IMG/VR virus record: IMGVR_UViG_3300020048_000056
Span: 1 to 64,000 of that record
Direction: 5' to 3' (one strand)
Source of the DNA: a virus
DNA: 64,000 nucleotides
This document shows positions 19,626 through 38,006 of the stretch, one piece after another (position 1 is the first letter of the stretch; each line of letters begins with the position of its first letter). The notes under the pieces were generated by a model that made no database searches, had not been told where the DNA came from, and saw only the letters and a program-made list of their open reading frames with translations. A program made the position numbers and the translations under genes.

Positions 19626-19642
19626 ATTCTAATTGCTCAAAA

Positions 19643-19980: not shown

Positions 19981-20005
19981 TATCTTCCTCCGTGTCAACT
20001 TTAGG

Positions 20006-20584: not shown

Positions 20585-20586
20585 GT

Positions 20587-21072: not shown

Positions 21073-21134
21073 CAGGACTCCTTATTGGTGGGTGATATCA
21101 CGATTCTAGCAGTTGTGGGGGTAGATGTCAAGAC

Positions 21135-21314: not shown

Positions 21315-21615
21315 TATTTTCTCCTCGTCGATTGGAATAGTCTCATCTTACCCTATGCCCTTCCCAATGTCAAGCGAAAAATGGGGTTTTTGGGGATTCA
21401 TCTTAATGCATCTTAAATGTTTTATTATTCTAATATTTTTAAAAAAGATGCCCGGCCTGGCCAAAACCCCAATGATACCAACAACTTTTCAGTATTCCCA
21501 ATTCTTCAATAACCGCAATGGGTTTTCGTTGTAAGAATGGAGTGACCTAAAAGTGTTGGTACTAAAGGGATTTTGGAGAAGGCAGTTTTACATCATGCCT
21601 AGGATTGTGTAAGGA

Positions 21616-22611
21616 CTACGCGAACGCAAGTTCCTTCACGACTGAGAGGATGCGATTCTTCTCAGCGTTGGTGACTGCATCGAAACCACTAGCAGCAGCA
21701 AGAACATTCTCTGCATTGCCCCCGCGAGGATTGCGATACCAGTCAAGGCGCTCAGTGATCGTGTTGTAAGCACCCCAAGCAGTATCCTTGATACCCACGT
21801 TGGTGGGACCAGTCCAGATGTCAAAGATAGTATCAACCTTGGCAGTCCACTTAGTGAGTGCGCCCTTGACATCAGCCTCAGGCTCAGGGTAGATAGCCTT
21901 CACAATGTCAAAGAACTTGTCAGCAGTGATGGACTGCTCGAACATTGCCTGTGCTTGGATATCAAACTCATCCATATACTGATTAGCAAGGCCAAGCGCC
22001 TCACGAGCCTGAGCAACCTTACCCTCAACTGACTGAGTGTGACGCATACGGAAGGACTGCTTTGCACCCTTGCCCTTAGCGCCTACTGCCATGTTGAGCG
22101 TGTTCTGGCAGACAACACGAACGGGCGTATTGCTTGCCTGAATAGCAAGGCTGCCATCGTGCGAGGTATGCAGGAGAAGATAGGACTTGACGATATCGCG
22201 CACACCGCTAGCGTCAATAACTGACTCACGCTCCATTGCGAGGGATGCGAATACTACGGTGCCGTTCTTGATAGAACCAGCAGTCTCCCAACGAGCGCCG
22301 TCAAGGATGTTGTCCCCGAATGCCAGCAGATCCTCGTTCTGATAGGGACGATAACGCTCGCCCACGACACCAAGAACATCAGCCAAGCCGTCATAGGGGT
22401 TGGTGCGAACGGTGGCAAAGTGCTGACGATGCGAACGACCAGGAAGAACAATCTCCTCGCAACGAACATCCCAATTAGCAAGGTGAGCAAGGCGCAGCAT
22501 TTCGGCGGTAGTCACTTCCTCATCAAAGACCTCGCCAAGACCGTGCCAAGCAGGCTGACGCAAAGAAGCAAAGGAGGCCATCTCGCCATACTGTTCCAAC
22601 ATGTGAGCCAT
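21616..22611 (-). CDS. DUF932-family phage/plasmid protein (TIGR03299-like)
   Basis: PAWHGLG, GVVGERY.PYQN, WETAGS, SHDGS, TPVRVVCQNTL, RHT motifs. Confidence 0.9.
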   Translation of the reverse strand: MAHMLEQYGEMASFASLRQPAWHGLGEVFDEEVTTAEMLRLAHLANWDVRCEEIVLPGRSHRQHFATVRTNPYDGLADVLGVVGERYRPYQNEDLLAFGDNILDGARWETAGSIKNGTVVFASLAMERESVIDASGVRDIVKSYLLLHTSHDGSLAIQASNTPVRVVCQNTLNMAVGAKGKGAKQSFRMRHTQSVEGKVAQAREALGLANQYMDEFDIQAQAMFEQSITADKFFDIVKAIYPEPEADVKGALTKWTAKVDTIFDIWTGPTNVGIKDTAWGAYNTITERLDWYRNPRGGNAENVLAAASGFDAVTNAEKNRILSVVKELAFA

Positions 22612-23038
22612 GATATTTCCAATCGTTTAGGTGATTTGCTTATAGGTAAAGAATACGGGATTTGGGAGTCATTGTCAAGCCATATCTACAATTTCTTTTA
22701 TTTATTTTTAGTTGTTATTTGATCGAAAGACAACGAATTCCCCTCTTGACAAGGGAATTGGGCATCTTAAATGGCCTTCTTAAATGGGTATAAACAACGA
22801 TATCCGTTGCGCGGCCCGGCCCGATTATTTTAGATTTGTCAAGTCACAAAAAAAGCCCCCCTAGGGAGCAAAGTGGGTGGATGCTCAACCTAGAGGGACG
22901 AACATGATGGAGGGGGGACTCCAAAATATCTACCATCAGTATACAGTAACAAAAAGGAAGGGGTAGGTGGATTGAATTCAAGTTTGAATGACTTAGCCAC
23001 GTATGCATTCTCAGTATCATTCAATGTCCTACCCCTAG

Positions 23039-23112
23039 CGGTACTGACGGGATTCGAACCCGCGATCTCTTCCGTGACAGGGAAGCGCATTAAGCCGCTA
23101 TGCTACAGAACC
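23039..23112 (-). tRNA. tRNA-Asp(GTC)
   Basis: Reverse complement ggttctg...cttcc-ctGTCac-ggaag...gcggg-ttcgaat-cccgt-cagtacc-g. Confidence 0.9.
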
Positions 23113-23117
23113 AAATA

Positions 23118-23198
23118 AAATAGTCAATGGGATTCGAACCCATACCTGAGATTTTTCCCTCCCCGTCCATCCTTTTCTTTTTTAGACTATGACTATTT
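23118..23198 (-). ncRNA. tRNA-like RNA lacking a proper anticodon arm
   Basis: Acceptor-like aaatagtca/tgactattt and perfect T arm atggg-ttcgaat-cccat; purine-rich middle. Confidence 0.55.
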
Positions 23199-23201
23199 CA
23201 G

Positions 23202-23268
23202 CACCTCACCAAGGAATCGGACCTTGCCAGACGAGGTTTGGAATCTCATCCCCGCCCAGCGGGTAAGG
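23202..23268 (-). tRNA. atypical compact tRNA-Trp(CCA)
   Basis: gccttac/gtgaggt acceptor, mini D arm cgc-tgg-gcg, loop ttCCAaa, T arm caagg-tccgatt-ccttg, G73. Confidence 0.65.
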
Positions 23269-23416
23269 CTAGCGGACTAGGCTTATTCCCTTCCTTCACC
23301 TAGTCCTATTTGGTAGATGGCGATAATTATGGGAACCATCCATTGAGTCAGCCAGTCGATTTGCAGGGTGGCGTAGACTCAAGCACTCTATTTATTTATT
23401 TAGGAATTGTAACACA

Positions 23417-23554
23417 TTATGAGACGGTTGTCCAACGACCATCCTCAAAGCGGACGCGGTACGAACCATTCTGATTGTCTACGATTTCGGCAACAATGCC
23501 CTTGTGTGAAGACTTCTGAGAGATGAATTCTGAACCGACGATTGCGATACTCAT
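23417..23554 (-). CDS. small SH3-like protein (not in ORF track)
   Basis: MSIAIVGSEFISQKSSHKGIVAEIVDNQNGSYRVRFEDGRWTTVS; AAGGA RBS. Confidence 0.65.
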   Translation of the reverse strand: MSIAIVGSEFISQKSSHKGIVAEIVDNQNGSYRVRFEDGRWTTVS

Positions 23555-23629
23555 GTTATTTCCTTCTTTAGTATGGTTTATGATCTATGTGATACTAAGC
23601 CTTTTTATATCATGCTCAGGATACGAATG

Positions 23630-23794
23630 CTATCGACCAACGATAGTAACGCGAGGCCGAACGATCTTAGATGCAGGGAGAGCCTGAGTCTGGTTGGTTG
23701 CACCAAGGAATGTACCCTTGTCATTACGAACGACAGCCTTGGCGACTGGTCCCTTGCTCGTGTTCCAGATCTCAGTAGCGACAATAACCTTCAT
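23630..23794 (-). CDS. small basic protein (not in ORF track)
   Basis: MKVIVATEIW...VVRNDKGTFLGATNQT; AAAGGA RBS; promoter 23883-23855. Confidence 0.65.
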   Translation of the reverse strand: MKVIVATEIWNTSKGPVAKAVVRNDKGTFLGATNQTQALPASKIVRPRVTIVGR

Positions 23795-23956
23795 GTATTT
23801 TCCTTTGTTTGGGAGAAAGCCACGGTGAGCATTTCTCTTTGTTGTTATGTTTACATCCTACACCATCTGGGAGAGAATGTCAAGGCATTTTCTAGACTGT
23901 TATCATTTTGTTATCAACTCAATATTTCCACCCTTTGTCGTTATAACGCTATCTTA

Positions 23957-24214
23957 CTACAGATTCATCAGGTCGTCAAGGGTGTCAATGGAATTAAGTC
24001 TGTGACTTGCGTCACCCTCAAGAATGACAACGGCAACGGAACGGATACCCTCAACAAGGCCCATACCACTCATACGCATAGCCTCGTTTGTTTCATTGGC
24101 CAACTCAGCGTATAGAGTAAATGCAGCGTGCGCTAAATGTCCTGAGAGATCCATAGCATTGACGTATAGTTCCCCCTCATGTTCGACGGTACGGATATTC
24201 AATTCACTAAACAT
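23957..24214 (-). CDS. hypothetical protein
   Basis: Operonic ORF. Confidence 0.6.
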   Translation of the reverse strand: MFSELNIRTVEHEGELYVNAMDLSGHLAHAAFTLYAELANETNEAMRMSGMGLVEGIRSVAVVILEGDASHRLNSIDTLDDLMNL

Positions 24215-24407
24215 CTTCCACTACCATTCTAACTAGGTCACTATCTGACAATGCTATAGATCGTTGGAATCCCTCATCATCAACAAGCCAGAGAATACTA
24301 TGATCGTTATCAGCACCCTCAATTGCTTGTAGGTAGAATGTTTGTTCTTGAATGTATAGAACATCACCCTCTTCCAATGCCCACACTTCGATTTGTTCAG
24401 TAATCAT
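24207..24407 (-). CDS. hypothetical protein
   Basis: Likely start MITEQ; operonic. Confidence 0.55.
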   Translation of the reverse strand: MITEQIEVWALEEGDVLYIQEQTFYLQAIEGADNDHSILWLVDDEGFQRSIALSDSDLVRMVVEDV

Positions 24408-25084
24408 TCTTCCAAGCCTTCCTTTCACGCTGACGCATTGCTGATGATGAAATAAGATCTGAGCAACAGAAGCATCCACGATGCCCGTTGCGTCCTTGGT
24501 TTCTCTGACTGTTTCTCATAGGGACAACTTACCACATATTTTAGGTTCATGCAAATTTTGGGCACATATTTTGGTGTGTCTTAAACCACATCTTAAGGGG
24601 TTGACATTTGAGAAAAATGCGACCGGCCTGGCTTTTGCCCAAAAGTCGTTGGTATCAAACAACTTTTAGACATAGCCAAAACATGTTGCTACGCAGCGAA
24701 TAATGCAGCAATCAAAATAATTGCAATGACAACAAAAATAATTACACCGCAACCTACTGCAATTCCTGCACCGATCTGCTCAGCCTTTGCATTCTGCTCA
24801 GCGGCTGTCTGGTTCCACTCATTCTTATTCACTGGGATTCCTTACTGTAGATTTGATTTGAAATTTCTTTGTACATGGCGTCAATTTCTGCGGGGACAAT
24901 ATGATGAGTGTCTAGAGCGGCTAGCATGAAGAGCAGACTATCCCATGAATTCATTGACATATCAACTCTAATCATTATTTTCCTCCGAATAAGTTTAGGC
25001 ATCCACCGAGTAGAGCCATTAGTCCAAAAAAGAATACTACGTTAGTTAGCATTGCGATAATCATGCTACCACCATTACGATCAT

Positions 25085-25648
25085 TCACTTAGCCTCACCC
25101 CTTGCAACAATCCAGATGAGTGCTTGCATTGCTGCGGGAGTCAATCCGAATGACTTTGCAACCTCACGAACACAATCCGCTAACAGATTATATTCTGACT
25201 TATTGACACCCTTGGCAGCGTCAAGCCCTGCGGCACGAATCATCCATACGTCAATCGTGACCGCATTAGTATCCCCCGCAATGTTGCGAGCGAAAGCATT
25301 AGTTTTCTGACCATTGAGCGCATCGAATCCAAGAACTAGAGAATTGTTTGCCATTGTCATATTGTTGGCAAGCCCTGCGACATGATTACCCTGAGAGAAT
25401 GAAAGCGCATTGATAACGTTACGTCCCCAAGTCTGACGGGGAGAGAATGCAGCAACAATGCTCGCGCCAATTTCAAGGGTAGATCCAAGGTTGCGTGCAA
25501 CTTCCAAGGCTACATCCTTAGCATCATCATACCAAGTAGCGGCAGATGCAATATCTGACATGGTGGCATTGAGAGCAAGGCGCGTGTAGGATGACAGAAC
25601 ATCCTGACGGGCTTCGGATACGGTGTGGGTGAGATTCAATGTGATCAT
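25085..25648 (-). CDS. HhH-GPD/DNA-glycosylase-like phage protein (DUF7178-like)
   Basis: WY..A, AAFSPR..W..N, KT.AF..NI.G...VTIDVW, QA.IW motifs; leaderless TTGACA-17-TAGGAT-N6-ATG. Confidence 0.7.
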   Translation of the reverse strand: MITLNLTHTVSEARQDVLSSYTRLALNATMSDIASAATWYDDAKDVALEVARNLGSTLEIGASIVAAFSPRQTWGRNVINALSFSQGNHVAGLANNMTMANNSLVLGFDALNGQKTNAFARNIAGDTNAVTIDVWMIRAAGLDAAKGVNKSEYNLLADCVREVAKSFGLTPAAMQALIWIVARGEAK

Positions 25649-25660
25649 GGTATGATCCTA

Positions 25661-26224
25661 TCAGTTATTAGTCAGAATGTCAATAGCAGATGAGTAACTA
25701 TTTACAAATTTATTTGCTAGATCTTGTGCTACATAGTCATAGAGGAAATACTTATATTCTGAGTGCAGTTCACAAATAATGATGCCAAAATTCTCTGCTA
25801 TTTCTAGAATAGAATTATCTTTGCCTATAGCATTTTTTCCACAAATAACAATTTTTTTACAATCCAAGGTAGATGTCTGAAGAATAAATTTAGACAATCC
25901 TTGGATATCTAATACAGTCTTAGCCTCAGCAACAATAGAAATGTCTCCATCCTTGAGTGCTACACAATCAAAGGTAGAAGATCCTAACTTATATTGTGAA
26001 TGTACGCTGTCCAGATTTAACTTACTAGCAGACTCTAACACCATGCTAAAGGTTACATCCTCATAGATCTTTGCTTTCATTACCCTACGAATACGCATAG
26101 GCAGGCTATCAGCGTGATCCGAATCCCGTACAATTCTGAGAGCCATAAATGAATAAGCGGACAAGTCAATAACAGTATCGTCAATGTATACGATATGCTT
26201 GGAAGTCTTTGTATCATTTCCCAT
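25661..26224 (-). CDS. PD-(D/E)XK nuclease-like protein
   Basis: Q...FDCVAL...IVAEAKT catalytic pattern. Confidence 0.6.
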   Translation of the reverse strand: MGNDTKTSKHIVYIDDTVIDLSAYSFMALRIVRDSDHADSLPMRIRRVMKAKIYEDVTFSMVLESASKLNLDSVHSQYKLGSSTFDCVALKDGDISIVAEAKTVLDIQGLSKFILQTSTLDCKKIVICGKNAIGKDNSILEIAENFGIIICELHSEYKYFLYDYVAQDLANKFVNSYSSAIDILTNN

Positions 26225-26746
26225 GATGTTTCCTATTGTTGGAAGGATTAGAGTGAGGGTCTATCTTATTAGTTAGAAGGTCAGGGGGTAATTAATTTCG
26301 ATCCAAGTCATACAACCTAGACAATGGTATTCCCCATTAGGTTGTATTCCCCAAGGAAAGCCGTGCAGAATTGGACTAGGCATTTTCTCTATCCTTATGC
26401 TTGGTTTTACGGGTATATCTAGACTTATTTTTATGAGGCATAGCGGCATTAGATCTACGCAATTCCTCAATACGCCTCTGGTGTTCAGGATTCCTACGAT
26501 GATTCATTAGATACCTTCCGAACGCCAGCAGTTATAGCAGCAACGAATATCTTGGTCGTATCCGTTTACGGTGTTATAGAAAGAATGGAATCCACGGTCG
26601 CTGCCCTCACAGGGGTTCTCAAAGTTGCTCATGGCATTAGCCTATCAGATTTTATTTACAATGTCAAATTCTGCCATGTTTTTAGGGGTGACTTAAACCA
26701 CACCTTAAAGACTTGACAAATGAAAAAAAATCGTCCGGCCTGGTTT

Positions 26747-26944
26747 TTACACCACCTCCAAAGTCAGGAGGTAGTTGTCGAGATTTTCCTCAACCTGAGC
26801 AGCAAATGAGCCATCTTCCAAGCGCCAGACACCCGCACCGACCTTGATGCCACCACGCTCGCGCAGTTCTTTAGCAAGATCCTTCCAAGAGTCGAATCCA
26901 GAGACGCGGTAGGAGTAGAAGTTGTCGATGTAGAGGTTGTACAT
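26747..26944 (-). CDS. hypothetical protein
   Basis: AAAGG RBS, own promoter 27002-26974, bracketed by two CTTAA/CCGGCC repeats. Confidence 0.75.
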   Translation of the reverse strand: MYNLYIDNFYSYRVSGFDSWKDLAKELRERGGIKVGAGVWRLEDGSFAAQVEENLDNYLLTLEVV

Positions 26945-27058
26945 GGCTTGCCTTTCGTTAGGATGATAATATTATCCTATCCTAGATTTCATTAAATGTC
27001 AAGCGATTTCGCAGATTTCTGCCATATATTTCGGTGTGACTTAAAGCACTTCTTAACC

Positions 27059-27078
27059 TGTGGATAACTTGTGGAAAA
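27059..27078 (-). promoter_or_regulatory. two tandem DnaA boxes
   Basis: TGTGGATAA, TGTGGAAAA, 11-bp period. Confidence 0.65.
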
Positions 27079-27201
27079 CGCGACCGGCCTGGTTTTTCCA
27101 GAAAAGTCCTTTAGTACCAACACCTTTCGGCTCTCCCCAAAACCGTATCATTACGAAACGATAATGGAGGAGTCTCGAAAAGCATTGGTATTAAACAACT
27201 T

Positions 27202-27360
27202 TTAGCCCCAATCGTTTTCATCACGATGAATGACGCTAAGTGCAGCGAGCAAATTCTCCTTTGCTGCCAACGTGTTTTCAGCATTGAGCATATTCATTGC
27301 CATCTTGATTTGGAAGGAAATCTCAAAATCACGAGGGGAGAGTTCAGTGTTAGCCAGCAT
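27202..27360 (-). CDS. hypothetical protein
   Basis: Likely start MLANTELS overlapping upstream stop. Confidence 0.55.
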   Translation of the reverse strand: MLANTELSPRDFEISFQIKMAMNMLNAENTLAAKENLLAALSVIHRDENDWG

Positions 27361-27583
27361 TGTATTCCATCCAATTCTGTAGTGATTTAGTGAAATCAAG
27401 CATAGAGGTACGATTCTTTTCATGAGCGAATTCGAAACACTCAATGTTTTCTATCCATGTTGGCTCATCTGTAATTCTATACACGTTGGCGGTATGAGAT
27501 CCAACGTACCAGACTACCCACTCACCACTATCTAGATCAGCACGCATTGTATTTATTTCTGGGTAAGAGTAAATCTTCACCAC
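27350..27583 (-). CDS. hypothetical protein
   Basis: GGGG RBS, GTG start. Confidence 0.55.
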   Translation of the reverse strand: MVKIYSYPEINTMRADLDSGEWVVWYVGSHTANVYRITDEPTWIENIECFEFAHEKNRTSMLDFTKSLQNWMEYNAG

Positions 27584-27713
27584 TTGCCCCCTTCATTCTG
27601 ATAAGCGATTAGTCGATCAAGGTCAATAGTTAGAAAATGAATGTTGCAGGGGATGCACAACTCTTCCCACATTGGGGAGGGCTCTACTTCCAAGTCGCAA
27701 TGGCTACAGAAGA

Positions 27714-27857
27714 TCACTGCTCATCACTCTCATCAAGAATCTCAAAGTCTCCGTAGGAGTCACCATCGTGCTCTACTGCTATCTTGATAAACTCTAGAGC
27801 CCTATCACGATTATCGAACATAGCGCAGTATGCGCCGTAGTAGTAAACCTTATACAT
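27714..27857 (-). CDS. hypothetical protein
   Basis: AAGGA RBS before MYKVYYYG. Confidence 0.6.
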   Translation of the reverse strand: MYKVYYYGAYCAMFDNRDRALEFIKIAVEHDGDSYGDFEILDESDEQ

Positions 27858-28034
27858 ATTATTTTCCTTAGAATGGGAGTGAGTAGAAGAGGGTGCCATC
27901 GACGAGAACGGAATCCTCGCCAATTCGCATGGCCTTGCTGTAGTCGAACGCGGTATCTTCCAACATGTGGTAGATGTCTGACCAGTTGCTCTCGAATGTG
28001 TTCATGGATTTATCCTATCAGTAGGGTCTGACAT

Positions 28035-28184
28035 TTAGACGAGGGAGAGGAGGTTGCCCTCCTCACCTACAGTCTCAACATCGAGAACGTGATTATGGAA
28101 GCAAGGGTGAACGGTAGGGTCACCATCGGTGACGATACGAGTAGTGGTCCCACGAGTGAGGTCTTTGACGAGGTAGATGGTCAT
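28035..28184 (-). CDS. hypothetical protein
   Basis: AAAGGA RBS before MTIYLVKD, downstream of TGTCAG promoter. Confidence 0.65.
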   Translation of the reverse strand: MTIYLVKDLTRGTTTRIVTDGDPTVHPCFHNHVLDVETVGEEGNLLSLV

Positions 28185-28231
28185 TTTATTTCCTTTGATT
28201 GTTTCTTTGAGTCTAGCAGAGGGGTCTGACA

Positions 28232-28414
28232 TTAGGAGCAGTGGCGCTGCCATGCATTCCAAGCAGCGATTTCGCAATGGATGCAACGGTTACAGTCATC
28301 GACGTTTCCAATGGTATGCGAGTACGCATTAGCCTGACGGATATCGGCAGGGATTGCAGCAAGGGCAATCTTTTCCATAGCGTAGCGCTGAGGGTAGGTA
28401 AGGGTCTGAGTCAT
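28232..28414 (-). CDS. hypothetical protein with CxxC
   Basis: AAGGA RBS, downstream of TGTCAG promoter. Confidence 0.7.
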   Translation of the reverse strand: MTQTLTYPQRYAMEKIALAAIPADIRQANAYSHTIGNVDDCNRCIHCEIAAWNAWQRHCS

Positions 28415-28498
28415 TGTATTTCCTTCGTTTCGGTTTATATTAGAAGTCTATCAGGAGGGTCTGACATTCATGGTCTGAGAATGCATACAAAACGGACA

Positions 28499-28672
28499 TG
28501 TGGATAACTTTCTTTTTGTGGTCTATATCACATGAGTTATACACAACTTATACACAGGACAAATAGTTATACACAAGTTATCAACATGTTATGCACAACT
28601 TTTCCACAAATTGGGCATGAAAATCCGCCATCTTAAATGATTATCTTAAACCTGTGGATAACCTGTGGATAA
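28499..28672. promoter_or_regulatory. cluster of nine DnaA boxes
   Basis: TTWTNCACA matches at 28499(-), 28537, 28548, 28567, 28578 (1 mismatch), 28589, 28600, 28653(-), 28664(-). Confidence 0.8.
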
Positions 28673-28758
28673 CGCGCCGGGGCCATTTTTTTCAAATAGT
28701 TGTTTAGTACCAACACTTTTCGGGGTACATGAAATAGTTGTTTATTAGCAATAACTTT

Positions 28759-29205
28759 TCAGTATTCCCAACCCTCTACAATAGTTGTTGGTATCAAACG
28801 ACTATTCCATAGTGCAATAACACTAGGGTTATCATCTACAGCATGTATAACATTCCAAGTATGCTCAATAGCATCTAGGATATCTTTCTTTACTTCATAG
28901 TCAGGACGATTGTCATTGTCCCCTCGCATAAACATTGCATCGCTTGGAATGTTGTTTAGTGCCAACCACATTGCGGTATGCCTTGCCCATCGTTGCCTAC
29001 GGGCGGTAACTATGATTACCGCATTACCTAGAACATGGGCCAATTGTGCATGATTAACAACATGGGGATTGCTAGGAACATTAACGCTTTCATTATGAAA
29101 TGCCTCAAAGTCTTTTCTATGATTCACGGGTATAAGGTGATGGCGTATAGAGGATACATTGGCTAATGTACCGTCCATATCGAATATGACTGCATTACGC
29201 TTCAT
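28759..29205 (-). CDS. HAD-superfamily phosphatase (PNKP phosphatase-like)
   Basis: FDMDGTL, VTAR, MR..D.RPD..VK, AVDDNP motifs. Confidence 0.9.
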   Translation of the reverse strand: MKRNAVIFDMDGTLANVSSIRHHLIPVNHRKDFEAFHNESVNVPSNPHVVNHAQLAHVLGNAVIIVTARRQRWARHTAMWLALNNIPSDAMFMRGDNDNRPDYEVKKDILDAIEHTWNVIHAVDDNPSVIALWNSRLIPTTIVEGWEY

Positions 29206-29455
29206 TGCCTACCGCATACTCTACTAGGAAAGCACTAACTAAGTAATTAGGTACATAGCGGTATACAAGAGTGTAGGAAGTTGTATCAGCAAGACTTCCA
29301 TCGTTATACCCTGCAAACTCAGCAAGGATATCCAATACCCACTTATTATCTTGGAAGAATGCCAATTCCATACAACCATCCACGGCCTCTGGGATCATAC
29401 TAATCTGATTGGCTAGGGGGTGAGAGATAGTTACTCTATTGGCTAGGAAAGACAT
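29195..29455 (-). CDS. hypothetical protein
   Basis: Operonic ORF. Confidence 0.6.
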   Translation of the reverse strand: MSFLANRVTISHPLANQISMIPEAVDGCMELAFFQDNKWVLDILAEFAGYNDGSLADTTSYTLVYRYVPNYLVSAFLVEYAVGNEA

Positions 29456-29673
29456 GATGACTCCACAATGCTAGTAACGATACCCTCATGGGCAGGGGTA
29501 TTACGTGCTATTAGTTCCGCATGATACATGCTATCGCATTGCATATCACTAATAGGGGTAGGGCTTGCTTGTGTTTCTATTGCTCCTACTACTGCCATAG
29601 CAGCAATGATAGCAAGGGTAGCCAAGATGCCTACCACTATACGGCCTAGGGGGGTAAGGTCAGTGTATGTCAT
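29443..29673 (-). CDS. small membrane protein
   Basis: N-terminal transmembrane helix. Confidence 0.65.
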   Translation of the reverse strand: MTYTDLTPLGRIVVGILATLAIIAAMAVVGAIETQASPTPISDMQCDSMYHAELIARNTPAHEGIVTSIVESSCLS

Positions 29674-30096
29674 GCCATCACGACATCTACAATGGTGAAG
29701 CCTTGCTCACTGCAAAGGTCAAAGGTCAAAGAGATAATAAAGGCGGCACGGTGATGATTGTGGCACTCATAGGTGTAAGACTGGTTGATACCCATGTTAT
29801 CTAGTACGGTGATTGAGAGGCTATTCATTGTGTATCTACTTTCTAGAGTGATGAGATTGAGTAATCAACGGACATGCCATGCTCAGCAAATACCGCGCTA
29901 TGGATACCGATAGCGGTCAATGCACCTTGCTCGCTCGCATACTCTCCAACGATGAAGGTACGGTGGGCCTTGGTGTAGGTTGCCTGAAACATTTTGTGTC
30001 CTTTGTTAGTGTGTGTTTCTTTATGTCTTTATTCTATATTAGATTATGTTGATATGTCAAGGTATAAGGTGTGAGGTACACCACACCCCCTGTATT

Positions 30097-30312
30097 TCAG
30101 GCCATTACCATTTCATCATTAGATAGGACTCTAAGGCTAGTGATATGGGCGATAAGCACACTCACGGGGTATGAGTAGAGGTTATCTTTTCCATAGGGGG
30201 TTACACCCGTGAGATACAAGTAACCGTCACGATCTTCTGTATAGAAGTCTTTCATGACGATCCAAGATCCGCCGCTATTCATGATTCTGTCAGTAGTGAT
30301 TTCGATAGTCAT
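30097..30312 (-). CDS. hypothetical protein
   Basis: Own TGTCAG promoter and CA-rich leader. Confidence 0.7.
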   Translation of the reverse strand: MTIEITTDRIMNSGGSWIVMKDFYTEDRDGYLYLTGVTPYGKDNLYSYPVSVLIAHITSLRVLSNDEMVMA

Positions 30313-30407
30313 TGTGTTTCTCTTTCTTAGTGTTTGTTTGTTTTGCTTTATATCTTTATTATAGTGGAGGGGTCTGACAATCTACCCCCATTATCGAGGG
30401 TATTTGG

Positions 30408-30596
30408 TTACAGTACGGTAACGGTATGGGAGATGTCAGGGTAGGTAGAGAACAGATCCTCTAAAGCGATAAGGCAATCGCTACATACATTGTTATTCAC
30501 TACCTTGCCATTCTGGAGGGTACGGTCAACGGATGCGATTGCAACGGAGGTACGGCCAAGGCAGAGAATGTGATTGCACTTAGTGATGACGTTCAT
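30408..30596 (-). CDS. hypothetical Zn-binding protein
   Basis: Own TGTCAG promoter, AAAGGA RBS. Confidence 0.7.
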   Translation of the reverse strand: MNVITKCNHILCLGRTSVAIASVDRTLQNGKVVNNNVCSDCLIALEDLFSTYPDISHTVTVL

Positions 30597-30700
30597 TGTG
30601 TTTCCTTTGTTAGTGTTTCTTTGTTTTGCTTATGTTCTTAGTCTAGCATGGGGGTCTGACATTCTGACCCACTATGAAGGGTATTTATGTAACGATTAGG

Positions 30701-30871
30701 TTACGACTCCCATGTCTCCCCTGTATAGGCTTCCCAATCAATGATACTCATGAGCCCCTTGTATTCATTGCATGATGCGCAGTAGGGGAGGGTAGTATCT
30801 TGATCACAGAATACACATACCATTATGTCCTCATCCTCAAGGATGCTAATCGGGATAAGTAGGGTAGTCAT
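30701..30871 (-). CDS. small zinc-ribbon protein
   Basis: VCVFC...YCASCNEYKGLM; AAAGG RBS; own TGTCAG promoter. Confidence 0.75.
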   Translation of the reverse strand: MTTLLIPISILEDEDIMVCVFCDQDTTLPYCASCNEYKGLMSIIDWEAYTGETWES

Positions 30872-31045
30872 TGTAGTGCCTTTCGTTGATTGCTTATATA
30901 GATAGTCTAGCGTAGGGGTCTGACAATTCGCAACTCCAATATCCGATATGTCCGAATTGTGAAATGTGATGTACCCCACAGGTGTGCGGACTATCCTATA
31001 TGTCCGTTTTGTCATATTTTGCGTACCGTACATCTAGACAATTTA

Positions 31046-31130
31046 TTAAACTTTTGTAATATATGAACCTATAAATAAAAATATATTAAACTTTGCACGA
31101 TATAAAAATATTTTAAACTTTGTAATATAT
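31046..31130 (+). repeat. three AT-rich direct repeats TTAAACTTT(T)GYAxxAT
   Basis: Copies at 31046, 31086, 31113 at the strand-divergence point. Confidence 0.65.
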
Positions 31131-31449
31131 AACATTTGTGTAACGGGGGGTACATATCTTATTAATGTCAAGTATTCTGTACATAGGTATGGTTAGTGTA
31201 AAGGATATGCTACATATAGATTGCGTCAGCAATGCTCTATACTAGACATGTGGAATATAAATATCCAGAACGTGTAAAAATTTGCGGGGGATGTCAATTT
31301 CTCTTGGATGACGTATGCCAGAAGGCTAACTTTCCTCTGGATGAATTTGTTAATCTTCGTCTGGCATATTGTCCTATGTTCAAATGGGGATAAATTGTTG
31401 TGGATGGAATAAGGTTAATAAAAATGAACAGCGACTTGATGGAGGAAAT

Positions 31450-31641
31450 ATGCGGCCAGTAAAACCATGGGATCTTCTTAATAAGGCCAATTGGACTATG
31501 GAAGAAGTACGAGCAAAGCGTTTAGAGATATGTGGGGAATGTCCTGAATTGAGCGCTATAAGAATGTGTAAGCAGTGTCATTGTTTTGTAGATGGTAAGA
31601 CTGCATTAGAGAATGCATACTGTCCTTTGCGTAAATGGTAA
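31450..31641 (+). CDS. Cys-rich protein (DUF6171-like)
   Basis: RLEIC..C....C..C.CF...K......CP..KW; GGAGG RBS. Confidence 0.75.
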   Translation: MRPVKPWDLLNKANWTMEEVRAKRLEICGECPELSAIRMCKQCHCFVDGKTALENAYCPLRKW

Positions 31642-31816
31642 CCGCCGCAGGCGATTAATGTTCTTACCCCTTTACTTTGTGCCGCCGCGTTGCGGTGAAT
31701 TGCGGCGTGTTAGCGCCGAACGTAAAGACATTATAGGGGGGTTAGTTCTACATTTCGCGCCGCGCTTTTAAGCATACTGATACAATACACAGTATGGTAG
31801 TTGAGGATAAAACATA

Positions 31817-32524
31817 ATGGGGGGAATGCTTTTAAATCCATACTTTGCATTAAGCCCATTCGTTACTGATGGACTTGTATTAAATCTTGATGCATCCAAT
31901 CTTTCTTCATATCCAGGCACAGGTTCCACTTGGTTTGATACTAGTGGGAATGGTAAGAATTATTCAATACCTGCAAATGCAACATGGAATCCTGCTGGAT
32001 ACTTCTCTATTACGGCGGGGACTAGTTTCTCAGGTCCATCATCTAACTCTTTTGGTTTTGGAAATGAAAATTATATTGAGGTTGTGGTTTCTCCCTCTGC
32101 AAATGGAGAGACTACTTTTTTTCAATGGGCAGCGACCCCATCTGTCGGTGTTGATCCTAGATCAATAAGTTCTCACCTTCCTTGGACCGATGGAAGTCTT
32201 TTTTATGATACATATGGATGCTGTGACGTTACCCAAAGAATATCTGTTGGTGGACAAGTGCCATTAAATCAAAAGAAGCATTATTCCTTTATTACAAGAA
32301 GAGCATATACCCCAAATAGAGAGGTATATAGAAATAATTCATCGATAGTCACATCTGGTACGAATAGTACTGGAACGTCTACTTGGAACTTAACTACTCC
32401 TTCCTATCTGGCAGGATCGTGGTCTGGAACTTTTTATTGTATCAGAGCGTATAACCGAGCATTAACCGATTCAGAAAGATTAAAAAACTATACTTATGAT
32501 CAAGTAAGATTTGGTTTAGTATGA
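31817..32524 (+). CDS. LamG/concanavalin-A-like domain virion protein
   Basis: VTDGLVLNLDA...SYPGTGSTWFD.SGNG and RAYNRALT..E...NY motifs. Confidence 0.8.
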   Translation: MGGMLLNPYFALSPFVTDGLVLNLDASNLSSYPGTGSTWFDTSGNGKNYSIPANATWNPAGYFSITAGTSFSGPSSNSFGFGNENYIEVVVSPSANGETTFFQWAATPSVGVDPRSISSHLPWTDGSLFYDTYGCCDVTQRISVGGQVPLNQKKHYSFITRRAYTPNREVYRNNSSIVTSGTNSTGTSTWNLTTPSYLAGSWSGTFYCIRAYNRALTDSERLKNYTYDQVRFGLV

Positions 32525-32591
32525 CATTGATTATCTTCGTTCTTAAATAATAGTTTTATTTAAAACTACTATTCGGTGGTATACTTTTTAC

Positions 32592-33110
32592 ATGGCAATG
32601 CTTTTCCCAACTAGCCCCACGATAGGTGAATCTTTTATCAATGGGAGCAAGATATGGATTTGGGATGGGGCATCTTGGTCACAGTCTGGCAGTTATGCAA
32701 ACTATACTCACGCTACAACTCATAGCGCTGGAGGCGTAGATGCTATAACTGTTGCACAGAGCCAAGTAACTGATCTTGATACTACTTTGGCGACAAAGTT
32801 AACCTCTAGTTCATCACAGGTTATTACTTTTTGTACCTCTGCTACCCGCCCTGATACTCCTGTAGATGGGCAAATGATTTATGAAACAGATACCGATAGG
32901 TATTATGGATGGAAAACTTCTTTTTGGGCTAGCATTGGTGGAGGTGCTACTGGTGGGGGAAACGATGACGTATTTTATGAAAATAGTCAAACAGTAACTG
33001 CTAGTTATACAATTTCTACTAATAAGAACGCAATAACTGCTGGACCAGTAACGATTGCTAATGGAGTTACTTTAACAATTCCAACGGGATCTATTTGGGT
33101 TGTGGTGTAA
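32592..33110 (+). CDS. tail fibre-related protein
   Basis: FP.SP..G..W.WDG..W; TSATRP...GQMIYETDT; GGATGGG.D.VFYEN...AGPVTI motifs. Confidence 0.7.
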   Translation: MAMLFPTSPTIGESFINGSKIWIWDGASWSQSGSYANYTHATTHSAGGVDAITVAQSQVTDLDTTLATKLTSSSSQVITFCTSATRPDTPVDGQMIYETDTDRYYGWKTSFWASIGGGATGGGNDDVFYENSQTVTASYTISTNKNAITAGPVTIANGVTLTIPTGSIWVVV

Positions 33111-33670
33111 TGGGTAATATAAGACTTTATGGATCTACATCTGGATATACGGAGATTGCTCCCCCTGCCGTTGGATTAAACAATACTTTAACCTTACCTA
33201 CCGATTCTTTACAGTCAGGACTCGTGCTGATCACCACGCAGGCTTTCAGCGCGGTGTCGGCAGTGGCGATCAATTCGTGTTTCACCAGCACTTATGACAA
33301 TTACCGGATTGTTGCCCGGCTGAAGGGTTCGACAGCCTCGCAAGCACTCACTTGGAGGTTCCGTGCAGCAGGAGCGGATATTTACACCGCGTCCTACTAC
33401 TACAACCGCGGAGGCACGTACACGAATTCGGCAGGTTATGCCGTCCTAGGTGTTATTGGGGATGCGTCAAATTGGGGTGTTTGGACCGCTGACATGAACT
33501 TTGCCACACCACAAAGCCTTGTCGCTCTGTCCGGCGCATACACGAATGGGAACGTCTCCCAAGAATTGTGCAGCCTGTCATACAACGGTGCCACGCCAGA
33601 TGGTTTCGACGCCTACCCGTCCACCGGCAACATGACCGGCACCATCAGCATCTACGGCTACAGGAACTAG
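33110..33670 (+). CDS. tail fibre tip/receptor-binding-like protein
   Basis: GLVLITTQAFS...CFTSTYDNYRI...GTISIYGY; paralog of 34390..34995. Confidence 0.65.
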   Translation: MGNIRLYGSTSGYTEIAPPAVGLNNTLTLPTDSLQSGLVLITTQAFSAVSAVAINSCFTSTYDNYRIVARLKGSTASQALTWRFRAAGADIYTASYYYNRGGTYTNSAGYAVLGVIGDASNWGVWTADMNFATPQSLVALSGAYTNGNVSQELCSLSYNGATPDGFDAYPSTGNMTGTISIYGYRN

Positions 33671-33684
33671 GGTATAATAAAACT

Positions 33685-33912
33685 ATGGCAGACATAATTG
33701 AAATAGATGCTTCTACAGGAGAGGTAATTCATCGTGATTTCACTGACACTGAACTTACTCAACGCGCACTTGACTTTGAGGCCGCTACAATAGCACAGAT
33801 TGCCGCTGATGAGGCCGCTGCATTAGCAATTGCGAATCGTGAGTCTGCTGTTTCCAAGTTGGCTGCACTCGGTTTGACTGCGGACGAGATCGCTGCACTG
33901 GGCGGTCGATGA
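33685..33912 (+). CDS. fibre chaperone-like small protein
   Basis: Leaderless TATAAT-N6-ATG; KLAALGLTADEIAAL motif. Confidence 0.7.
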   Translation: MADIIEIDASTGEVIHRDFTDTELTQRALDFEAATIAQIAADEAAALAIANRESAVSKLAALGLTADEIAALGGR

Positions 33913-34352
33913 TGCCAATTATCCTTGATGGCACCGACAGTATTGGTGATCTTGGTGATGCACTAGCAGCCAAGTTCACTACCCCCACCGCTTGGACGAC
34001 ATACACGCCAGCAACGACGGGGATGGCTCTCGGGAACGCATCCGTGAGCGCAAGTTACACGCAAATTGGGAAAACGGTCCATGTGCAGGTCTTCATAAAA
34101 TTTGGATCTACAACAACGCTTGGTACTGATCCCAATATTGGTCTTCCTATTGCCGCAAGAGATATGGAGTTGACTACTGGAACTGCAATTTACGTAGACG
34201 TATCAGCAAACTCCGCGAAATACATGGGTGCGTGGCGTTACGGATACCTAACTCGTGAGGGTGGACCATGGGGTCAAGCCGGGGCGAGCAGCCCGTTCAT
34301 CTGGGCGGTTAACGACATTATCCTGCTGTCCCTGACTTACGAGGCGGCATGA
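33909..34352 (+). CDS. tail fibre tip-like protein
   Basis: WTTYTP...GNA..SASYTQIGKTV...LP...TYEAA pattern. Confidence 0.7.
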   Translation: MMPIILDGTDSIGDLGDALAAKFTTPTAWTTYTPATTGMALGNASVSASYTQIGKTVHVQVFIKFGSTTTLGTDPNIGLPIAARDMELTTGTAIYVDVSANSAKYMGAWRYGYLTREGGPWGQAGASSPFIWAVNDIILLSLTYEAA

Positions 34353-34389
34353 TGACTGAACCGATGCGCGGCACTGAGATGAGGAACGC

Positions 34390-34995
34390 ATGAGCACTTT
34401 AAAAACCACAAACTTACAACACCCATCTTCTTCCATTAATAATATTACAATGTCTTCTACAGGTGCCACGGCAATTAATGGAACAATGATTGGTGCTGGA
34501 TTAGATTTAATCACAACGCAGTCTTTCAGCACGGTGGCGGCGGTGATCCTTGACAATTGCTTTTCATATACGTATCGGAATTACAAGGTGCTCCTAACTG
34601 TTGACGGCGTTACTGCTAGCAGTTGGATGCGTGGACGTTTGCGAATTGGTGGGACTGGCCCAGCGACCAATGACTATGAGAAGGCAGGGTTCCAGATGAA
34701 TGCATCTGGGGGGTACTCGGCGTATACCACGCTGACTGGTCCGCAGATGGATCTATTTAGTTCAGACGCTGGGTATGTCCCACTCACTGCGGAGATCACG
34801 TTCTTTAACCCTCAACGGGGCGGTCAAACTCGTATGCAATGGATCGCGTCGGGAGCCCTATCAGGAACATCTGGAACCATCACATATTTGAATACAACTA
34901 GATACGCATTGGCGACTCAGTTCGATGGTTGGTCCTTCTGGCCGGACTTTGGAACGATGAGTGGCTCAGTTTCCGTCTACGGCTACAAGAAATAA
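34390..34995 (+). CDS. tail fibre tip/receptor-binding-like protein
   Basis: MSTLKTTNLQH N-terminus; GLDLITTQSFS...SVYGYKK. Confidence 0.65.
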   Translation: MSTLKTTNLQHPSSSINNITMSSTGATAINGTMIGAGLDLITTQSFSTVAAVILDNCFSYTYRNYKVLLTVDGVTASSWMRGRLRIGGTGPATNDYEKAGFQMNASGGYSAYTTLTGPQMDLFSSDAGYVPLTAEITFFNPQRGGQTRMQWIASGALSGTSGTITYLNTTRYALATQFDGWSFWPDFGTMSGSVSVYGYKK

Positions 34996-35060
34996 CATAT
35001 ACCTACATATCAAACATAAACTTTGGTATAATAGATAGGTAAGTAAAAAAGGAGATTAAT

Positions 35061-35294
35061 ATGACAACAAACTTTAAAGCAATACTTAAATCATGGACAA
35101 ACGTTTTTGTAGCAGCCGTTATTACCGCTGTTATTGTTTCAATAGGAGATGGACAACTTACTGCTAATGACCTTTGGTATGTACTTATTGCTGGTGCCGT
35201 CGCCGTTCTACCTGTAATCAAGAATTACTTTGATTCTCAAGATCCTCGTTATGGTAAAGGATCGGATGCAACAGCAGTAGACGCTTCAAAGTAA
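35061..35294 (+). CDS. probable holin
   Basis: 77 aa, two TM helices, D.RYGKG tail; AAGGAG RBS. Confidence 0.6.
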   Translation: MTTNFKAILKSWTNVFVAAVITAVIVSIGDGQLTANDLWYVLIAGAVAVLPVIKNYFDSQDPRYGKGSDATAVDASK

Positions 35295-35295
35295 C

Positions 35296-35745
35296 ATGAA
35301 TAAGATCAAAGGGGTGATTAAAACCACTACTCATGATCGTCCCTTTGATTTCTATGTTGCAGCGTTACTCTTTTTTGCGGGTCTATACGGAATAATAGAC
35401 GATTCTTGGCCAGAAAGTATTGGCGTAGACCTAGCATCAACTATAATTGTTATCATATCGTTATATTTGATGTTTTCTGGTTTAGTTATCATGCTTGCAT
35501 TAGGATGTAATCGTAAAAAGTATCCAGTTATATCCCTTATTGCTGAAATGTACGGATGGCTTTTTGTTTCTTCAGCAAGTCTTGCCATTATCATAACTGA
35601 AATTGCTGCTATGACAGTTTTTGAGCCAAGGTCATGGTGGACTTGGGCAATTATTGTAGGTGTTTGGGGTGGGTTACTTGTCTCTAGCCTATTAAGATTC
35701 ATTGATCTATTTATCATCCATAGAGGACTATACAAAAATGGATAG
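35296..35745 (+). CDS. four-TM membrane protein (lysis-cassette-like)
   Basis: Four hydrophobic helices. Confidence 0.7.
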   Translation: MNKIKGVIKTTTHDRPFDFYVAALLFFAGLYGIIDDSWPESIGVDLASTIIVIISLYLMFSGLVIMLALGCNRKKYPVISLIAEMYGWLFVSSASLAIIITEIAAMTVFEPRSWWTWAIIVGVWGGLLVSSLLRFIDLFIIHRGLYKNG

Positions 35746-36091
35746 TGCGATAGTCATTGCAATTATTGGAGTTCTAGCCGCTCCAGTAGCAGGTACACTT
35801 ACTTGGTTACTTAATCGTAAGAAACATATTTCTGATATTTATACTGCTATCAGCGATTCTTCTCAAACAGCCGTCGAAACCATGCAATTGACGATGAAGG
35901 AACTTCGTGAAGAACTTGTTCACGCTCGTGAGAAGATTGAAGAGATGATCCGCGAAAACGAACTACTTCGACAAGATTTACAGGTTCTAAAGAAGCAGAA
36001 TGAGATGTTAATGGAGCAGATTCACGATATGCGAGTTTTCTACGAGCAGTCACAACAGAATGACAGTTCGAACACCTTACCTCGCATTTAG
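35738..36091 (+). CDS. membrane-anchored coiled-coil protein
   Basis: N-terminal TM then heptad repeats; GAGG RBS before MDSAIV. Confidence 0.7.
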   Translation: MDSAIVIAIIGVLAAPVAGTLTWLLNRKKHISDIYTAISDSSQTAVETMQLTMKELREELVHAREKIEEMIRENELLRQDLQVLKKQNEMLMEQIHDMRVFYEQSQQNDSSNTLPRI

Positions 36092-36299
36092 ATATCTCTG
36101 TCATAATTGTTGACCAAGCATAATCAGAACGTATTAAATTAGACACACTAGCCTTCTTATCATCGTTTACATGGTCAAACTGTAAAGCAACTGCATGTTC
36201 ATTGTATCCACAATCGATACATCCAAGTTCCTTCTTAATTATTCCAGCAAGTCTCCACTTAGCAGCCCTCTTTCTGGCTCTAGGAGATACGAAATTCAT
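35850..36299 (-). CDS. HNH endonuclease
   Basis: GCIDCG...LQFDHV...EISKCEVRCSNCH. Confidence 0.8.
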   Translation of the reverse strand: MNFVSPRARKRAAKWRLAGIIKKELGCIDCGYNEHAVALQFDHVNDDKKASVSNLIRSDYAWSTIMTEISKCEVRCSNCHSVVTARRKLAYRESAPLTSHSASLEPVNLVEVVRFRGSSLQSSHEREQVLHEVPSSSIAWFRRLFEKNR

Positions 36300-36978
36300 T
36301 CCATGCCTTTACTGTGATTGGATAATGCTCTTTAACCATATCGTTAATCACTGTAGCATAGTCTACGATTTCACTTTGTGCCCCGTGACCTAAACGTAGG
36401 GAGCAGAAGTGAAGGAGAGCATTCAAACTAGCAGTCCATCTCCAACGCACATACATAGCGTATGCAGGAAGAAGGAGTCGTGCTTGCTCTGGTGCAATTC
36501 CATCTGCAAGCGCTTCTAAATAAAGACTGTGCCCCTCTGTAACCGTTCGGTTCATTGCTTGGTAGTACTTTGAGCCCTTGTACAGTCCAACGCTCTCACC
36601 GCTCCCCTGTTTGCGATCCTCAGGTGCTGAGCGCCATTGATCAGGACTCGGAACATAGAACTCTTCCTTCTCAGTAATGTACCTACGAGAAGACTCATTC
36701 CAACCAAGTTGATCGTCAAGATGAGTTGATGAAACTGCGTGCTTGTACCATTGCCGTGCTATCATCAGCGGGGCATAGACTTCAAAAGTCATAACACAAT
36801 GTCTCAAGGTAGAATCATGCTTATGTTTTACCAAGAAGTTGATTAACTTTTCATCTCCAAGAGATAATGAAGAGATTTCTTTATCAAAAGAAACCCTTGC
36901 ACTATTTACAACATCAAGATCAGATCCCATATTGTTAATTAGCCTTACATATCCATGATCAAGTACTGGAATTTCCAA
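36280..36978 (-). CDS. thyX: flavin-dependent thymidylate synthase
   Basis: VLDHGYVRL, VNSARVS, RQWYKH...WNESSRRY, PEQARLLLP, LRL..GAQ.EI motifs. Confidence 0.93.
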   Translation of the reverse strand: MEIPVLDHGYVRLINNMGSDLDVVNSARVSFDKEISSLSLGDEKLINFLVKHKHDSTLRHCVMTFEVYAPLMIARQWYKHAVSSTHLDDQLGWNESSRRYITEKEEFYVPSPDQWRSAPEDRKQGSGESVGLYKGSKYYQAMNRTVTEGHSLYLEALADGIAPEQARLLLPAYAMYVRWRWTASLNALLHFCSLRLGHGAQSEIVDYATVINDMVKEHYPITVKAWNEFRIS

Positions 36979-37169
36979 GGAAATAACCTTTCATCTCTAG
37001 ACCCTTCGGGTCTTTATTGGTTTAACTAGGAAGAACATTCTCTTTTTTCTTTCTTCTCTTAAAGACAAGTATAGCCATCATTTGTAGAGGTTGTCAAGTT
37101 GAGAAGATAACATTTCTATAACGCTTATAACCTGATATAATTAAATTAAAATTAAGGAGGCTTTTCTAT

Positions 37170-37520
37170 ATGATACCAGGCAAGTATAACATTCTATGCC
37201 CTCAAGGGTCAACTCTTGACGACCTTGTTTTTACTTATAGCATCGACAGTGTAATTGTTGATCTTTTTGGTTGGACTGCAAGAATGCAAGTCAGGGAGAA
37301 GTATTCCAGTTACTCAGCAATTCTTAGTTTGACTACTGAAAATGATGGCATCTTCTTGGGTGGAGTAGATGGAACAATAATCTTGAATATTTCAGCACTT
37401 CAAACATCTGCAATAGTAGCCAAAGAATATGTGTATGATATTGAATTGATTAATCCAAGTACATATCCATATAGATTTTTAGAAGGCAAATTCATAGTAA
37501 CTCCAGAGGTGACTAGGTAG
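37170..37520 (+). CDS. virion structural protein (BppU-N-like Ig fold)
   Basis: GKYNI..PQGST...TARMQVR...YVYDIEL...LEGKFIVTPEVTR. Confidence 0.75.
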   Translation: MIPGKYNILCPQGSTLDDLVFTYSIDSVIVDLFGWTARMQVREKYSSYSAILSLTTENDGIFLGGVDGTIILNISALQTSAIVAKEYVYDIELINPSTYPYRFLEGKFIVTPEVTR

Positions 37521-37990
37521 TGACAAGTGTTGCAACTGTCTATCAACCAGAAGTTAACGTATCCTCAGAAGATTCTAAGGTAAGCGTAAACGTATGTGAA
37601 ACAGTTGTACAAATTACTACTGGCAATGCTGGTCCCCAAGGACCAAGAGGAACACAGGTTCTTTCTGGAGTTGAAGATCCATCAATAGTTATTGGATTAG
37701 TAGGGGACCAATACCTTAATGTAGAATCAGGTTTTCTGTTTGGACCAAAAACAGAATTAGGTTGGGGAGATGGCATTGCATTTGGTTTAACATTAAGTCA
37801 AGTCTCATATGTTCATTATCAAACTTCAGCCGCCTCAGTTTGGACTATTGAGCATGATTTGCTTTTTGTTCCAAACATAACAGTAGTCGATTTAGATGGG
37901 AAGGTTGTTGAGGGTGATTATCAGTACAGTGGAAGTACAATAATTGCTACGTTTTCTCAATCCATTCTGGGCGCGGCTTACTTATCATGA
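37520..37990 (+). CDS. minor tail/virion protein
   Basis: GPQGPRG, HYQ..A..VWTI.H.L...P.ITVVD motif. Confidence 0.7.
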   Translation: MTSVATVYQPEVNVSSEDSKVSVNVCETVVQITTGNAGPQGPRGTQVLSGVEDPSIVIGLVGDQYLNVESGFLFGPKTELGWGDGIAFGLTLSQVSYVHYQTSAASVWTIEHDLLFVPNITVVDLDGKVVEGDYQYSGSTIIATFSQSILGAAYLS

Positions 37991-38006
37991 ATGGAGATGA
38001 ATAAAA

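Follow-up and report, generated by a model that had tools for sequence, protein, structure and literature searches.

Which form of RNA polymerase (RNAP), working with which activator, reads the six promoter-like elements that stand on the minus strand between positions 28012 and 30925 of the phage record IMGVR_UViG_3300020048_000056? The window that we analysed is the first 64 kb of this 105,797-bp IMG/VR record (G+C content 40.5%). We consider it probable, at roughly 0.6, that the six elements are promoters read by the sigmaA RNAP of the host together with the host activator PafBC. In actinobacteria, Mycobacterium tuberculosis among them, the response to DNA damage has PafBC as its master activator, whose mode of action, sigma adaptation, is unusual. 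The PafBC consensus in vivo is tGTCgg(N10)tA(N3)T, with the hexamer at -23 to -28 and a strictly conserved GTC, which R46 and R50 of PafB read; PafC contacts sigmaA region 4 where a -35 box would act (PMC8635444). Single-stranded DNA (ssDNA) is required for PafBC action (PMC11804915).

The original prediction had described six minus-strand elements in which TGTCAG is followed by a -10 hexamer after exactly 10 nt, with no TTGACA at -35, and had matched them to the RecA-NDp motif of PafBC. All six were present where it had placed them:

30904..30925, minus strand: putative promoter 1, TGTCAGACCCCTACGC-TAGACT (-26 element, N10 and -10)
30640..30661, minus strand: putative promoter 2, TGTCAGACCCCCATGC-TAGACT, with an extended -10 (TGn)
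30358..30379, minus strand: putative promoter 3, TGTCAGACCCCTCCAC-TATAAT
28445..28466, minus strand: putative promoter 4, TGTCAGACCCTCCTGA-TAGACT, with TGn
28210..28231, minus strand: putative promoter 5, TGTCAGACCCCTCTGC-TAGACT, with TGn; begins 1 nt past the stop codon of the preceding gene
28012..28033, minus strand: putative promoter 6, TGTCAGACCCTACTGA-TAGGAT, with TGn; begins 1 nt past the stop codon of the preceding gene

The 10-nt distance held for all six, and a TTGACA 16-18 nt from the -10 was absent from every one, the only resemblance being a weak TTGCGA at 18 nt in the element at 30925. Both the sequence and the spacing of the elements fit the published PafBC consensus (PMC8635444). 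The block that they have in common is longer than TGTCAG and consists of A or T followed by TGTCAGACCC, then N6 and the -10 box; the window holds six minus-strand copies of (A/T)TGTCAGACCC-N6-TA(G/T)(A/G)(A/C)T. TGn is found in four of the six and is lacking at 30379 and 30925. The window contains six matches to TGTCAG-N10-TANNNT compared with 0.76 expected, and at least six were obtained in 0 of 100 shuffles. Across the whole 105,797-bp genome, we found one additional match, on the plus strand at 105695, which was rejected as a seventh site and put down to chance because it falls within a tRNA gene.

Scanning IMG/VR for TGTCAGACCC-N6-TAGACT returned 109 contigs, most of them with 34-52% G+C, and the majority carry many extra co-oriented TGTC(A/G)G-N10-TAnnnT sites, with a maximum of 26 in 13 kb. 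Two near-complete syntenic relatives, G123 (101.7 kb) and G125 (99.6 kb), have 18 and 10 sites, respectively, compared with 0-2 for a reversed-pattern control, and these sites are co-oriented and located as in the genome studied here, in the same arm and at the same end of it. Fourteen further contigs of the lineage have 5-18 sites each, mostly within one stretch of ~10-12 kb. The idea that the contigs with the motif come from many unrelated phage groups was discarded, as all 14 that were checked are fragments, 26-75% complete, of genomes of ~105-120 kb.

Over 916 kb of related phage loci, the spacing is strict, with 599 sites at N10 (about 109 of which had been picked by the search pattern itself) versus 4-28 at each other spacing from N6 to N14. 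The ACC-flavour consensus over 478 unique phage sites is aaaTGTCAGACCCc..TGcTAgacT, and TGn is present in 88% of the ACC-flavour sites. For the same 478 sites, the ATG lies at either of two preferred distances from the -10: a sharp maximum at 6 nt comprises 50 leaderless starts, and a broad one at 25-36 nt corresponds to a leader with a Shine-Dalgarno sequence. Because the strict N10 and the two ATG peaks are the behaviour of promoters and not that of a mere repeat, the six elements in the window are in all likelihood promoters.

A second flavour, TGTC(A/G)GTGG, corresponds to the classical RecA-NDp form tTGTCRgtg and is dominant in some relatives. The ACCC and GTGG flavours occur together in single phage contigs, and both also occur in host genomes; their presence side by side agrees with a reader for which TGTCRG suffices. 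In this region, the nucleotide sequences of relatives resemble each other largely in promoter-plus-leader segments, and some of the small proteins are 40-63% identical. When positions 30864-30925 of the window were compared with three related loci (L023, L103 and L028), the promoter and the first 30-40 nt of the leader (ATATAAGCAA..CAAAG) were 85-89% identical and the coding sequences were barely alignable, which points to promoter-leader modules as units of spread or of conservation.

Because the ends of the record overlap by 55 bp, we regard it as a circular assembly whose ends are arbitrary. The original prediction had called the genes behind the elements the outermost ones and had expected the sites to gather at one end of the genome. 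There is no basis for the term 'outermost' in a circular assembly and no genome end to gather at; what stands, in this genome and in its syntenic relatives, is the clustering of the sites at one end of the arm.

The phage encodes WhiB (51 bits, exceeding the Pfam cut-off), DnaE, RecA, a ribonucleotide reductase and an HK97-type head module, together with a tape measure protein and a minor tail protein in open reading frames (ORFs) of 2630 and 1795 aa, respectively, and the window contains eight tRNA genes. The portal is 44-45% and DnaE 52% identical to their counterparts in Streptomyces phages, among them Wakanda and Coruscant (Stanwilliamsviridae), which are the closest cultured kin. Because WhiB is present and both portal and DnaE resemble those of Streptomyces phages, we take this uncultured phage to be an actinophage. 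A 1268-aa ORF directly 5′ of the portal gene (window 51113-54919, plus strand) has no Pfam or PHROG match and is 34-51% identical in G123, G125 and a contig binned with an Aquiluna genome, which is described below.

Wakanda and Coruscant share with this phage a large siphovirus-type genome, tRNAs and a DnaE replicase, but they contain only 1-3 chance-level matches to the motif, and it was therefore rejected as a family trait of Stanwilliamsviridae-like phages. Nor is it general to actinophages, since a sample of ten classic cultured ones (Bxz1, D29, TM4, phiC31, Barnyard, Omega, Corndog, Rosebush, Giles and Che9c) gave a total of 4 matches versus 3 in the control. Two temperate mycobacteriophages in this sample have one match each, Giles (EU203571, 36682-36703, minus strand) and Che9c (AY129333, 34210-34231, minus strand), and the Che9c site, TGTCGGTGACATCCCCTACCGT, is a good fit to the classical RecA-NDp form. 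A separate set of IMG/VR contigs with 68-69% G+C (L052:9000-9360 and L092:4690-5050; also L045, L111 and L116) has a conserved pair of convergent PafBC-type sites ~300 bp apart. One site of the pair precedes a near-leaderless ORF of ~60-70 aa, with the ATG 7 nt after the -10, and the other precedes a short non-coding stretch, possibly a small RNA, that runs up to a shared GC-rich hairpin. Temperate elements of high-GC actinobacteria may thus carry PafBC-type promoters as well.

A megablast search with the 27-32 kb region found no match among 50,697 phage records. A scan of 185,579 species genomes based on WhiB returned a single locus, on a 57,119-bp contig binned in a metagenome-assembled genome (MAG) of an 'uncultured Aquiluna sp.' (G001:C2, L124-L126). 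This contig is a syntenic fragment of a sister phage with 40.4% G+C, and amino-acid identity is 60-85% from the pre-portal gene to the tRNA region. Its presence in the MAG is either contamination or a clue to host association and gives a weak pointer to Microbacteriaceae-like freshwater hosts. From WhiB, the kinship with Streptomyces phages and this sister contig, the host is very probably an actinobacterium.

We then took the taxonomic class of the Aquiluna MAG as the sample of host-class genomes. Proteins with a WYL domain were found in 121 of 121 genomes, including those of 1.4-1.5 Mb, often as tandem pairs ~1 kb apart. The Aquiluna MAG itself has tandem PafB-like and PafC-like genes, and its PafB-like protein matches Arthrobacter PafBC (6sj9, E 7e-30) and Mycobacterium smegmatis PafB in the complex with RNAP (7p5x_AY); the DNA-reading arginines are kept, with R47 and R51 aligned to R46 and R50 of 7p5x_AY. 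In five of five small actinobacterial genomes, TGTC(A/G)G-N10-TAnnnT occurs exactly once at the recA locus, 5′ of recA and on the recA strand. The extended block is used as well, since TGTCAGACCC-N6-TAnnnT has 134 matches in 79 of 301 class genomes compared with 1 for a reversed control, and some 22-mers are found unchanged in several class genomes, as expected of orthologous promoters. The tallies include genomes flagged as unpublished (G007, G022, G027, G030 and G036 in the set of 121, and G131 in that of 134), with an effect of at most 5 of 121 and at most 1 of 134. We examined ten genes downstream of such host sites, and three belong to DNA repair, namely rmuC (in the Aquiluna MAG), the NAD-dependent ligase gene ligA and a SNF2 helicase gene; the remaining ones encode a phosphatase, a DUF6227 protein and proteins without an assignment. 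That the general motif is a common type of host promoter was rejected for the Aquiluna MAG, which has 9 matches genome-wide versus 14 in the control, and in the host it therefore defines a regulon of few genes.

Two further host-side observations concern sites of this type. An 88-aa Cys-rich protein (CHGC...CGDC) of no Pfam family is conserved in three actinobacterial genomes of 1.2-1.5 Mb (L132:512-775, L134:2228-2491 and L143:254-517), and its gene sits 30 nt 3′ of a conserved TGTCAGACCCCCCA(T/A)TTACC(G/T)T site, which makes the protein a candidate addition to the PafBC regulon of streamlined actinobacteria. In another genome, G180, there are four near-identical copies of TGTCAGACCCGGTCC(C/A)TAGTCT, on L144 (G180:C23) and on three other contigs; at the one copy that we examined, a 558-aa ORF of no Pfam family starts 6 nt after the site. 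We tentatively see in this repeat a multicopy element in which a PafBC-type promoter drives a leaderless gene.

The phage has a 16-kb leftward arm made up of small genes, and the six elements stand in two triplets at its promoter-proximal end. As the original prediction had it, every element lies directly 5′ of a single short gene (six of six, with ORFs of 45-71 aa), and one of these genes is leaderless. Five of the six have a 25-45-nt leader with an AAGG or GGAAA Shine-Dalgarno sequence; the ATG of the gene behind promoter 6 (28005) starts 6 nt after the -10, and its mRNA should therefore be leaderless. The genes and other features of the region are as follows:

30950..31800, no strand applicable: AT-rich divergent intergenic region that parts the leftward and rightward arms
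30701..30871, minus strand: 56-aa CxxC...CxxC protein behind promoter 1, with a 32-nt leader and GAAAGG; homologues ~46% identical in related contigs
30408..30596, minus strand: 62-aa protein behind promoter 2
30097..30312, minus strand: 71-aa protein behind promoter 3
30031..30060, minus strand: ordinary sigmaA-type promoter, TTGACA-18-TAGAAT, between the two triplets
28232..28414, minus strand: 60-aa Cys-rich protein behind promoter 4; homologue in the relative G125 59% identical
28035..28184, minus strand: 49-aa protein behind promoter 5; homologues in three relatives 61-63% identical
27868..28005, minus strand: 45-aa protein behind promoter 6, predicted leaderless mRNA

A comparison of the six small proteins and four neighbours with PHROGs assigned none of them to a family. 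The sigmaA-type promoter between the triplets heads a run of six genes, the last of which encodes a polynucleotide kinase/phosphatase-like protein (28759-29205). Just 5′ of promoter 4, the gap at 28470-28760 of the window contains tandem repeats of the TTATCCACAGG and TGTGTATAAC types, which are DnaA-box-like.

Most other leftward promoters had been described as ordinary, and we indeed found twelve TTGACA/TTGACT-17-TAnnnT promoters on the same strand from 18.1 to 30.1 kb, including between the triplets, which puts the PafBC-type share of the promoters of the arm in this genome at six of about eighteen. Among the relatives, G317 (L024 record; 26966-38647, minus strand), G320 (L040 record; 16919-27187, plus strand) and G311 (25952-36267, plus strand) have 15-18 co-oriented TGTCRG-type sites over ~10-12 kb, and most of these have the GTGG flavour. 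In the course of evolution, either promoter class seems able to take the place of the other.

In the mechanism that we propose, the phage promoters are built on the PafBC (RecA-NDp) architecture, with a -26 TGTCAG extended to TGTCAGACCC, 10 nt, a sigmaA -10 (mostly TGn-TAGACT) and no -35, and each would transcribe one tiny ORFan gene from a start expected 6-7 nt past the -10. The most likely reader is the PafBC heterodimer of the host, which is constitutively present and, once bound to ssDNA, acts by 'sigma adaptation', inserting itself between region 4 of sigmaA and the -26 element. Sources of ssDNA could be damage to the host DNA, incoming or replicating phage DNA, or the breakdown of host DNA, and its appearance in the cell would turn on or boost the six genes; the interleaved TTGACA-type promoters would need the plain sigmaA holoenzyme only. 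Binding of PafBC at the six sites, gating by ssDNA and the time of firing are the parts of this mechanism that we infer.

Several points weigh against PafBC as the reader. The phage sites are tighter than the PafBC consensus demands (ACCCc, TGn and TAGACT), and their extended 22-mer form, TGTCAGACCCCNNTGCTAGACT, has no match in the 185,579 species genomes scanned. TGn may confer a basal activity that is independent of PafBC, and the need of PafBC for ssDNA sits uneasily with genes that would have to fire first. The original prediction had taken the six genes to be probably the first expressed, a view to which the sigmaA-type promoters interleaved in this arm lend no support. The host link to Aquiluna depends on one binned contig. 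Finally, the arrays are confined to one environmental lineage of ~110 kb and are absent from 12 cultured actinophages although the hosts of these have PafBC, a distribution that a lineage-specific phage factor would predict likewise.

Such a factor is at the centre of the alternative that survives best, which we nevertheless consider unlikely: the sigmaA holoenzyme would be joined by a phage-encoded or virion-delivered adaptor with no detectable similarity to PafBC. Its role could fall to a small protein made early in infection or to the phage WhiB, which would act on sigmaA region 4 much as T4 MotA/AsiA does, and the elements would then be a phage 'middle' class, convergent on or copied from the -26 geometry of the host. 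Besides the restriction to one lineage, the tight consensus and the absence of its extended form from bacterial genomes speak for this, WhiB and many ORFans are present in all lineage members checked, and the sigmaA-type promoters of the same arm could express the factor first. However, in some relatives nearly all of the arm promoters found are of the PafBC type, which leaves little to express a factor first, and two flavours within one phage also tell against it. No candidate for the adaptor emerged either. The original prediction had suggested looking for a WYL or helix-turn-helix activator or a sigma factor encoded by the phage, and no WYL, PafB/C-like or sigma protein was found: the genome has neither WYL nor sigma70_r2 domains, five motif-rich relatives have no WYL domain, and phmmer searches with host PafB and PafC against every ORF of at least 40 aa in three phage genomes gave no match at E<=10. 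A search for a single-subunit RNAP, the control of which was uninformative, gave no match. The 2630-aa and 1795-aa ORFs were considered as virion RNA polymerases and rejected when identified as the tail components named above. A small phage factor of unrecognisable sequence is a possibility, but hosts use the identical composite, including the ACCC flavour, before DNA-repair genes (134 matches versus 1, as given above), and a host reader for it therefore certainly exists.

We place behind the adaptor, as somewhat more doubtful, the explanation that the elements are self-sufficient TGn sigmaA promoters in which the TGTCAGACCC block is an operator for a phage or host repressor or for a shut-off factor. 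Many actinobacterial promoters function without a -35. TGn, which is found at four of the six sites here and at 88% of the ACC-flavour phage sites, would fit such promoters, and the block overlaps the spacer, a common place for repressor binding. The two sites at 30379 and 30925 that lack TGn do not agree with self-sufficiency, the block stands at a fixed position with the very sequence that PafB reads (PMC8635444), and the damage-repair genes behind host sites of this form are known to undergo activation, not repression, through the motif. That the elements are not promoters at all, but repeats that mark where gene cassettes join, as recombination or homing sites would, or a signal acting at the level of RNA, is very improbable: the start of two sites 1 nt past a stop codon and the mobile-module-like restriction of similarity to promoter-plus-leader segments are outweighed by the fixed N10 link to a TAnnnT box, the leaderless ATG exactly 6 nt downstream at 50 sites, the strict co-orientation with genes and the same composite before host genes.

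With host PafBC as the preferred reader, the phage sites can be set beside known systems. They resemble the PafBC-dependent (RecA-NDp, recA P1-type) promoters of Mycobacterium and other Actinobacteria in TGTCRG at -28 to -23, the invariant GTC, N10, TAnnnT and the missing -35 (PMC8635444, PMC11804915), and in the probable host class the same composite stands before recA and other repair genes. Unlike these host promoters, the phage sites belong to a lytic-type genome, come in arrays of 6-26, precede tiny ORFan genes instead of repair genes and have the extra conserved ACCCc, TGn and TAGACT; PafBC is their predicted reader. An analogy between PafBC and T4 MotA/AsiA was drawn in PMC8635444. In T4 middle promoters, which combine a MotA box at -30 with a sigma70 -10, the -35 is likewise replaced by an activator box at a fixed distance, and in the 'sigma appropriation' by MotA/AsiA the activator likewise lies between the DNA and sigma region 4. 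In T4, however, both activator and co-activator are phage products and sigma region 4 is remodelled, whereas no activator was found in this phage and the box is that of the host itself. Large lytic phages have host-takeover modules, an example being the early genes in the terminal redundancy of SPO1, whose early promoters are plain sigmaA promoters. Such a module resembles the phage arm in being a run of very short genes, with a strong promoter for every gene, where an arm of small ORFans begins or ends; in contrast to SPO1, one subset of the promoters here has the architecture of a conditional activator type and is interleaved with plain sigmaA promoters.

Known phage strategies include activators of their own, such as T4 MotA/AsiA, and listening to LexA/RecA. 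The original prediction was not aware of a description of PafBC-type promoters on phage genomes, and our literature search likewise found none. Tentatively, in a proposal that we judge a little more apt to fail than to hold, the ~110-kb lake actinophage lineage may have handed a switch to the ssDNA sensor of its host: PafBC would serve as a conditional or delayed-early activator, plain sigmaA and PafBC-type promoters would provide two expression classes with no phage regulator, and the alarm of the host would trigger takeover or counter-defence genes. If PafBC is the reader, infection itself would activate PafBC, which could explain a reported link between pafBC and mycobacteriophage resistance, cited in PMC12848934. 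The arrays would also offer hundreds of natural promoter variants, with the ACCC and GTGG flavours and their combination with TGn, for dissecting how PafBC reads DNA. Arrays of a lytic-type phage under an ssDNA-sensing activator of the host would be a new form of host-regulon capture.

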